The notes under the pieces were generated by a model. It worked only from the letters and a program-made list of their open reading frames with translations. It was not told where the DNA came from and ran no database searches. Positions 42,783 to 43,138 of a stretch of 64,000 bases of DNA are shown piece by piece. Source of the DNA: Microbotryum violaceum. Its lineage: Eukaryota. Position numbers and translations under genes: made by a program. The DNA lies in NCBI GenBank assembly GCA_001244265.2, contig CDLV01000008.1:1922001-1986000 (forward strand), given 5' to 3'. Each line of letters starts with the position of its first letter. Positions within the stretch are counted from its first letter, which is position 1.

Positions 42783-43138
42783 TGGACCTGAGTTCAATTC
42801 TCAGTTCAGCCAAACTTTCCTTTGTTTTCCAATTTGGTAGCGTCTGTCACTGCCGCAAGGCAAACTAAGATCGGTCACGAGTTGAACAATTGATTAAGTT
42901 GGTTGGCTTCAGTTGTTTAATCAATTGAAGGGGACAGTAGAAGTCAATGTGACCGTGCACCAGTCCGCCCGCCATGGCTCCCAATGTGTGGTAGAACCAC
43001 CGCCGGTGTGACTTGGGTGCACCGTCATATTCATCTATTCCTACTGGTTGAGTAGCTCAGCGGTCAGAGCAACTCTGATTAATAGAGTGGACCTGAGTTC
43101 AATTCTCAGTTCAGCCAAACTTTCCTTTGTTTTCCAAT
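42783..43138 (+). mobile_element. Miniature terminal-direct-repeat (TRIM-like) element carrying a tRNA-like gene
   Basis: 51-bp identical direct repeats (42783-42833, 43088-43138) and TSD TATGG (42778-42782 / 43139-43143). TGGTAGCG PBS-like motif at 42835. Removing the insertion restores the RT codons TAT GGA CAC. Confidence 0.85.
43046..43117 (+). tRNA. tRNA-like cloverleaf (72 nt), non-canonical anticodon loop GAUUAAU (UUA at anticodon position)
   Basis: Acceptor GGTTGAG/TTCAGCC+A, D-arm GCTC/GAGC, anticodon stem ACTCT/AGAGT, variable GGAC, T-arm CTGAG-TTCAATT-CTCAG. A box TAGCTCAGCGG and B box GTTCAATTC, followed by short T tracts. Confidence 0.7.

Follow-up and report, generated by a model that had tools for sequence, protein, structure and literature searches.

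A probable 5'-truncated TRIM of Helenus type, with a tRNA-like gene in its LTR, inserted in the RT gene of a young gypsy element of Microbotryum violaceum

The DNA of Microbotryum violaceum analysed here (the window: 64,000 nucleotides of contig CDLV01000008.1, assembly GCA_001244265.2) contains, within the RT gene of a gypsy element, a short non-coding insertion that is likely to be a 5'-truncated copy of a small multi-copy TRIM family, the structure of which points to the Helenus/TRIMp3 type. The LTR of this family is probably about 204 bp long and has a whole tRNA-like gene inside it, and the 52-nt repeat at the left end of the insertion is probably the remainder of a truncated 5' LTR. The copy in the window would then consist of the last 52 nt of the 5' LTR, the internal part and the full 3' LTR (52 + 101 + 204), between the two copies of an intact target-site duplication (TSD). 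The features on which this description rests are the following.

39995–45929, plus strand: host element, a chromovirus (gypsy) with gag, PR, RT (split), RNase H, integrase and chromodomain
42778–42782, no strand: left copy of the TSD, TATGG, forming codons Y-G of the gypsy RT
42783–42834, plus strand: probable truncated 5' LTR, comprising the final 52 nt of the family LTR, identical at 52/52 positions to 43088–43139
42835–42842, plus strand: PBS TGGTAGCG, directly 3' of the left repeat
42835–42935, plus strand: internal region, 101 bp, no ORF, bounded by PBS and PPT
42927–42934, plus strand: PPT GAAGGGGA, ending one base before the LTR start
42936–43139, plus strand: probable full 3' LTR, about 204 bp, placed by contig breaks, three flanks, the start of a contig of run X12 and the position of the PPT
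43046–43117, plus strand: tRNA-like gene, Rfam RF00005, 49.9 bits against a gathering score of 29
43081–43087, plus strand: AATAGAG, which forms the 3' side of the anticodon stem and abuts the position corresponding to the first base of the truncated 5' LTR
43130–43133, plus strand: T4 run, candidate weak Pol III terminator, the sole T run of at least 4 in the 305-bp unit
43139–43143, no strand: right copy of the TSD, TATGG, the first T of which is also the last base of the repeat

The piece that interrupts the RT ORF (42783–43139) is 357 bp long, or 356 bp if its last T is assigned to the TSD; as this T belongs to both the repeat and the TSD, the latter can be read as TATGG or as ATGG, so that a 4-bp reading is possible. 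No ORF was found in the insertion, in which the longest stop-free stretch is 63 aa. To its left the RT piece ends in ...AFRTRY, and the piece on the right runs through YLDD, the Pfam domain RVT_1 being split accordingly (profile positions 1–97 on the left piece and 112–205 on the right piece). The RT reading frames on either side differ by one, because 361 = 3 × 120 + 1. Four public runs (X4, X9, X11 and X12) were compared with window positions 42400–43500 by means of k=31 contigs, and in three of them (X9, X11 and X4) a contig that bridges the gypsy RT skips exactly 361 bases (356 + 5), with five letters that fit either side. This empty site therefore identifies the piece as an insertion with a 5-bp duplication and, together with the split RVT_1 domain, confirms what had been proposed in an earlier note made from the sequence alone, namely a 356-bp non-coding insertion in a gypsy RT gene with a TATGG TSD.

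The chromovirus that hosts the insertion is young, its two LTRs being 377 bp long and 99.7% identical, and the TRIM insertion knocks out the RT of this otherwise young element. The ORF that encodes RT and RNase H extends to 44374, whereas that of the integrase starts at 44056, so that the two overlap in different frames; besides the TRIM insertion, this gypsy copy therefore has either a frameshift or a sequencing error in the region between RNase H and integrase. Over the gypsy element (40001–46000) the GC skew is strongly negative (−0.27 to −0.30) compared with the surroundings, a strand-biased composition of the chromovirus. The element lacks matching 5-bp flanks (TCGCG on the left, a different sequence on the right). 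An 816-bp inverted duplication (99.9%; 35504–36319 and 45928–46742) is part of a copia-like element, the RVT_2 domain of which lies on the minus strand at 35720–37336, and the second copy of the duplication abuts the gypsy 3' LTR. The duplicated copia part and the unmatched gypsy flanks suggest an inversion, or recombination between gypsy copies, after the insertion of the gypsy element.

Other structures were observed elsewhere in the window. A near-perfect palindrome occupies 9752–19391, in which 9752–14382 matches the reverse of 14761–19391 with 99.9% identity over 4.6 kb, around a spacer of 378 bp. A retroviral-type aspartyl protease ORF (14009–14872) lies at the inner ends of the arms, and the palindrome is therefore a head-to-head duplication that includes a retroelement fragment. 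A 253-bp repeat with 77% identity is found in both arms (12667–12909 and 16234–16476) and at a third site (33725–33975). The malic enzyme encoded at 28239–30179 is closest to that of Microbotryum intermedium (84% identity), followed by that of Leucosporidium (67%).

The two direct repeats of the insertion, 42783–42834 and 43088–43139, are identical at all 52 positions and spaced by 305 bp, and their length becomes 53 if the G at 42782/43087 is counted; the identity and the period given in the earlier note are thus correct, and the length of 51 bp is to be replaced by 52 nt. A 29-nt piece of the repeat occurs twice in the window, compared with an expectation of 0.00 (100 shuffles), and an exact-match scan of metagenome contigs with a piece of this length returned 0 stretches. 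The left repeat contains the variable loop, the T arm with the B box, the acceptor 3' strand and a T-rich trailer, with a T4 run at 42825–42828. Directly after it comes TGGTAGCG, as had been pointed out before; this motif occurs once in the window, where 1.27 occurrences are expected anywhere on both strands, and therefore the signal is its position and not its presence. We take it to be the PBS, putatively complementary over 8 nt to the ...CGCUACCA 3' end of fungal initiator tRNA-Met, and the shortness of this match counts against the TRIM reading proposed here. At the other end of the internal region, which contigs of X11 and X9 span unbroken with 0 differences, GAAGGGGA is the sole purine run of at least 6 in the element; a purine run of at least 8 that ends no more than 2 nt from the end of the internal region was obtained in 1.3% of 10,000 shuffles. 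A scan for bacterial-type promoters and terminators, which is irrelevant to a fungal element, gave one match at chance level.

The tRNA-like gene is the only tRNA or Rfam match in the 64 kb. The earlier call of a tRNA at this place is upheld both by the Rfam covariance score and by ARAGORN, which predicts a 'tRNA-Stop (tta)' at 43045–43118. The anticodon loop reads GAUUAAU, with an A at position 33 and the anticodon UUA, and the thermodynamic MFE fold retains the acceptor and T arms only, with no clean cloverleaf. Because of the A at position 33 and of this predicted fold, the gene is best regarded as a tRNA-like module that is not credible as a working tRNA. By the usual box consensus, the A box would be located at about 43053–43063 and the B box at about 43095–43105. 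As for the T4 run that follows the gene, the idea that it is a unique terminator by design was discarded for lack of statistical support, given that 59% of shuffles have at most one T4 run.

A second, related family was also observed in the public runs. Its contigs, found in X9, X11 and X4, are 88–90% identical to the window over the tRNA-like gene and its trailer (43044/43051–43135) and continue after 43135 into a sequence of their own, which is conserved between runs (two contigs in X11 and four in X4). The variant letters cluster in the anticodon loop (43080–43084) and the T arm (43093–43103). Several tRNA-bearing families seem to coexist, as has been reported for Helenus in rusts, where several families co-occur in one genome (Kojima, 2024; PMC10886601).

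The existence of further copies, on which the reading in the earlier note depended, was looked for inside and outside the window. Within the 64 kb, self-searches gave no further copy of the element or of any part of it. Of the 24 public runs listed, 20 contain the element stretch or part of it and 17 contain at least half of its sampled words, across five organism labels and nine studies; two of the runs are possibly the source of the window. The family appears to be multi-copy and widespread, is nearly identical between runs, and has copies joined to several different flanks.

These runs also indicate where the family LTR begins. The contigs identical to the window stop, with 0 differences, at 42965 (X11; 42805–42965) and 42964 (X9; 42832–42964), that is, 30 letters (k−1) past 42935, because a k=31 graph breaks where copies with other upstream sequence join. 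X9 and X11 show flank letters different from those of the window before 42936, as X4 does before 42934. A contig of X12 starts at 42935, reaches 43086, continues through the repeat, the PBS and the internal part, and ends at 42949, in the start of the LTR. The sequence common to the copies starts at 42935/6 and not at 43088, the start of the 52-nt repeat, and three different flanks join it at that point. At the 3' end of the LTR, five X11 contigs follow the window as far as 43139/43140 and then continue with sequences that differ, and the same boundary is given by the junction with the PBS in the 5' copy, so that the public runs show several flanks at both ends of the LTR, together with a depth in the LTR above that of the internal part. 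In the two runs marked as DNA, contig depth, which is not to be read as copy number, is 25.4 in the internal stretch (42835–42935) and 50.2 in the interior of the LTR (42965–43074) in X9, and 66.9 and 122.6 in X11; this ratio of about 1:2 is the one expected from two full LTRs per internal part, and counts as supporting evidence only.

Taken together, the contig breaks, the flanks, the position of the PPT and the ratio of depths place the start of the family LTR at 42935/6. The LTR would be made up of a U3 region at 42936–43045, an R region that begins with the tRNA-like gene at 43046 and extends to about 43133, and a short U5, and the graph breaks, flanks and depth suggest a full-length element of about 509 bp. 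The 305-bp period is the sum of 204 and 101, and therefore the contigs that go back 305 positions (X4 and X12, two of the four runs) fit an LTR followed by the PBS. What counts against this boundary is that the termini of such an LTR would be AG...TT, unlike the usual TG...CA, and that the truncated left end does start with TG. Among the contigs listed from the DNA-marked runs, none connects a flank to the PBS by way of a full 5' LTR. One X9 contig has the PBS and the internal part (42832 and beyond) behind a sequence that is not related to the LTR; it could be a second copy without a 5' LTR, or a different LTR variant or a partner that shares the PBS region.

With the LTR placed in this way, the central proposals of the earlier note are probably wrong. 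It had regarded half of a tRNA as the terminal repeat of the family and had concluded that a complete cloverleaf forms only across the junction of the internal region and the 3' repeat; the whole tRNA-like gene would lie inside the 204-bp LTR, and the half tRNA in the repeat would be due to the place where the 5' LTR of this copy is cut. The dependence on tandem arrays or circles, and the circular RNA that was to arise from a permuted tRNA, are made unnecessary by an LTR of this length. The more general view, that of a non-autonomous LTR-type retroelement with a tRNA-derived module of Pol III type and a PBS of initiator-Met type, is sustained by the TSD, the Rfam match and the multi-copy family.

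The copy in the window is defective, in that its 5' LTR has the B box but neither the A box nor the start site. Once the family just described is granted, the short left end was rather more probably produced during reverse transcription than by any other means, and a later deletion is the appreciable, lesser alternative. In the reverse transcription of LTR elements, the left end of the cDNA is set by the point at which plus-strand synthesis starts and by the distance over which the minus strand copies it back. Along a first route, plus-strand priming may have taken place just 3' of the purine-rich AAUAGAG in the anticodon stem, rather than at the PPT; along a second one, extension of the minus strand may have stopped at the foot of the anticodon hairpin. 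AATAGAG (43081–43087) is thus a candidate site of aberrant plus-strand priming or of arrest, and either route would give a left end that starts with TG (bottom strand ...CA-3') and that could be joined by integrase. A truncated 5' LTR flanked by an intact TSD would in this case be a natural record of an aberrant end of reverse transcription that was integrated nonetheless.

As an explanation of the whole insertion, the alternative in which a member of the same family was inserted as a full element of 509 bp and was afterwards shortened by a deletion of the first 152 bp of the 5' LTR is unlikely. Truncated LTR elements are common in genomes, and one base of microhomology (G) is present at the junction (42782/43087). 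Nevertheless, to spare the TSD such a deletion could begin no farther than about 1 nt from the first base of the LTR, and it would have had to occur in a copy that is very young, as indicated by the 52/52 identity of its repeats and the 99.7% identity of the host LTRs. Moreover, the 361 bases missing from the empty site are exactly the 356 + 5 that fit insertion of the short form.

It is improbable that the 356-bp form itself is the unit that propagates, that is, a mini-LTR element in which half a tRNA serves as the 52-nt LTR and the Pol III gene, complete only across the junction of the internal region and the 3' LTR, is transcribed from tandem arrays or circles, possibly by way of a circular RNA. 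The perfect repeats, the TG at the left end and the intact TSD are in its favour. So is a 335-nt contig of X4, exactly 305 + 30, which represents a closed k=31 cycle without flanks; such a cycle does not come from a plain chromosomal copy and could stem from a tandem array, from a circle with one LTR or from an RNA with terminal redundancy, and both it and the wrapped X12 contig are what circles or tandem arrays would give. Tandem arrays are, furthermore, known for Helenus LTR-11_DR and for Cassandra (PMC10886601). On the other hand, a full 5' LTR with the PBS behind it would yield wrap-around contigs just as readily. These contigs allow no firm statement about RNA, since none of the 24 runs listed is recorded as RNA, the kind of library is unspecified for X4 and X12 is only guessed to be RNA. 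A mini-LTR unit predicts a depth of 1:1, yet in X9 and X11, the two DNA-marked runs, the depth of 42965–43074 is about double that of the internal part; among the contigs listed, none joins a foreign flank to 42783, and the purine stretch before 43088 (AATAGAG) is weak. The shared sequence begins at 42935/6 and not at 43088, and it is at 42935/6 that three flanks join and the PPT ends. A narrower version, in which the short form is a self-propagating 'split-tRNA' lineage with a 52-nt LTR that has only the B-box half, the Pol III gene being rebuilt in a 305-nt one-LTR circle or in a tandem array, has to be considered more doubtful again; if true, the closed X4 cycle and the wrapped X12 contig would be a circular or tandem replicative template, of DNA or RNA.

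There is very little probability that no transposition took place and that the RT, while copying gypsy RNA, changed template to a tRNA-like or TRIM RNA packaged with it, added 356 nt and returned, or that the piece was captured during break repair. The location of the insertion inside a retroelement that itself undergoes reverse transcription agrees with a template switch. However, an exact 5-bp duplication and a right junction placed precisely at the 3' end of the LTR are typical of integrase and unexpected here, the layout of PBS, PPT and LTR is complete except for the left truncation, and the differing flanks expected of family copies are partly seen in the X11 contigs. Least probable of all is an assembly artefact in which a full-length element had its 5' LTR collapsed by the assembler: short-read and 454 assemblies have difficulty with LTRs of 204 bp and none of the contigs listed covers the left junction (42778–42790), but a collapse would not leave a 5-bp TSD together with a perfect 52-nt partial repeat, and the size of the insertion measured against the empty site is exact.

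Returning to the preferred explanation, a truncated member of a TRIM family with a 204-bp LTR, a life cycle can be proposed by analogy with Cassandra and Helenus. Pol III would start at the tRNA-like gene of the 5' LTR and read through the weak T4 run; transcription would cease at the T4 run in the 3' LTR, and the RNA would be terminally redundant over about 85 nt. The proteins of an autonomous element would then reverse-transcribe this RNA from tRNA-iMet and integrate the product; the 5-bp TSD suggests that this helper is probably Copia-like. A T4 run acts as a weak Pol III terminator in fungi. The one in the LTR, a candidate terminator, lies about 85 nt past the presumed Pol III start, where it would stop many transcripts, and therefore a full-length RNA requires read-through or another promoter. 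No autonomous partner was found in the 64-kb window: the 5' LTR of the host gypsy is not followed by a PBS of TGG type, and the neighbouring copia fragment has no paired LTRs.

The earlier note did not recognise a described family, and in terms of kind this was mistaken, as TRIMs with tRNA-like LTRs have been described as Helenus, which together with Ajax and Cassandra forms the group TRIMp3 (PMC10886601). Helenus elements are TRIMs that carry a tRNA-derived sequence with boxes A and B in their LTRs, in addition to a PBS and a PPT; those of fungi have 5-bp TSDs, measure 311–1263 bp and are thought to be moved by Copia elements (Kojima, 2024; PMC10886601). The tRNA-like parts of Helenus are frequently predicted to be non-functional or suppressor tRNAs, and the transcription of these elements by Pol III was left unvalidated in the same study (PMC10886601). 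The element described here resembles them in being short and non-coding (357 bp as found, about 509 bp in the probable full form), in having direct repeats around an internal part with a PBS at its start and a PPT at its end (the full LTR being the one deduced above), in its 5-bp TSD (TATGG), shared with the fungal members, and in a tRNA-like part predicted as a tRNA-Stop of suppressor type. It also resembles them in having a tRNA-like sequence with A and B boxes inside the LTR, a likeness that depends on the boundary at 42935/6, given that a 52-nt LTR would have the B-box half only. Unlike Helenus as described, the copy in the window retains only 52 nt of its 5' LTR, and the LTR ends would be AG...TT. 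Helenus has been found in Pucciniales and a few Agaricomycetes, and none was detected in Microbotryum, Leucosporidium or Rhodotorula, which were screened by homology search with known consensus sequences (PMC10886601). Since Helenus is held to be polyphyletic (PMC10886601), sequence similarity to a named Helenus consensus is not required for assignment to the class. A search of the literature for TRIMs, SINEs or tRNA-like elements in Microbotryum returned nothing relevant besides this study.

Four other systems share part of these features. In Cassandra, according to the passages of the same study that deal with this element, Pol III transcription proceeds from the 5' LTR to the 3' LTR, and long tandem arrays are known (PMC10886601). 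As in Cassandra, a small-RNA gene inside the LTR would here supply a putative Pol III promoter and terminator; the gene is tRNA-like and not 5S, Cassandra is restricted to plants, and the Rfam scan gave no 5S match at E≤1. Retrozymes, defined by hammerhead ribozymes in their LTRs, are likewise non-autonomous and of LTR type, with PBS, PPT and unusual LTRs, and the 305-nt closed-cycle contig could suggest circles such as theirs. No hammerhead was found in the Rfam scan of 42300–43600 at E≤1, which returned the tRNA and one sub-threshold chance match.

SINE2 elements begin with a tRNA head, end in a LINE-type or A-rich tail, lack LTRs, PBS and PPT and have TSDs of variable length, and they share with this element a tRNA-derived module of Pol III type in a short, non-coding, interspersed repeat; the assignment was rejected on account of a tRNA-like part that lies 110 nt inside the repeat unit, a T-rich 3' end that lacks an A-rich tail, the PBS, PPT and LTRs, and the 5-bp TSD. 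In permuted tRNA genes, which occur in red and green algae, the 3' half lies upstream of the 5' half, as it does in this insertion, and in those genes the two halves are joined by a short linker that is processed into a circle. Such a gene was also rejected, given that a contiguous full-length tRNA-like gene is present and that the upstream half, 211 nt apart, is a repeat copy derived from the truncated LTR.

The current understanding of retroelements is left unchanged by this element. To our knowledge, TRIMs with a Pol III small-RNA gene in their LTRs were for a long time known only from the plant element Cassandra. Predictions of 'suppressor tRNAs' in genomes such as this one should be taken as a warning, as they may correspond to the LTRs of retroelements. 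A young and nearly invariant family in a Microbotryum-like fungus would extend the Helenus kind to a lineage in which a homology screen had found none, and it supports the view that tRNA-bearing TRIMs arise repeatedly.
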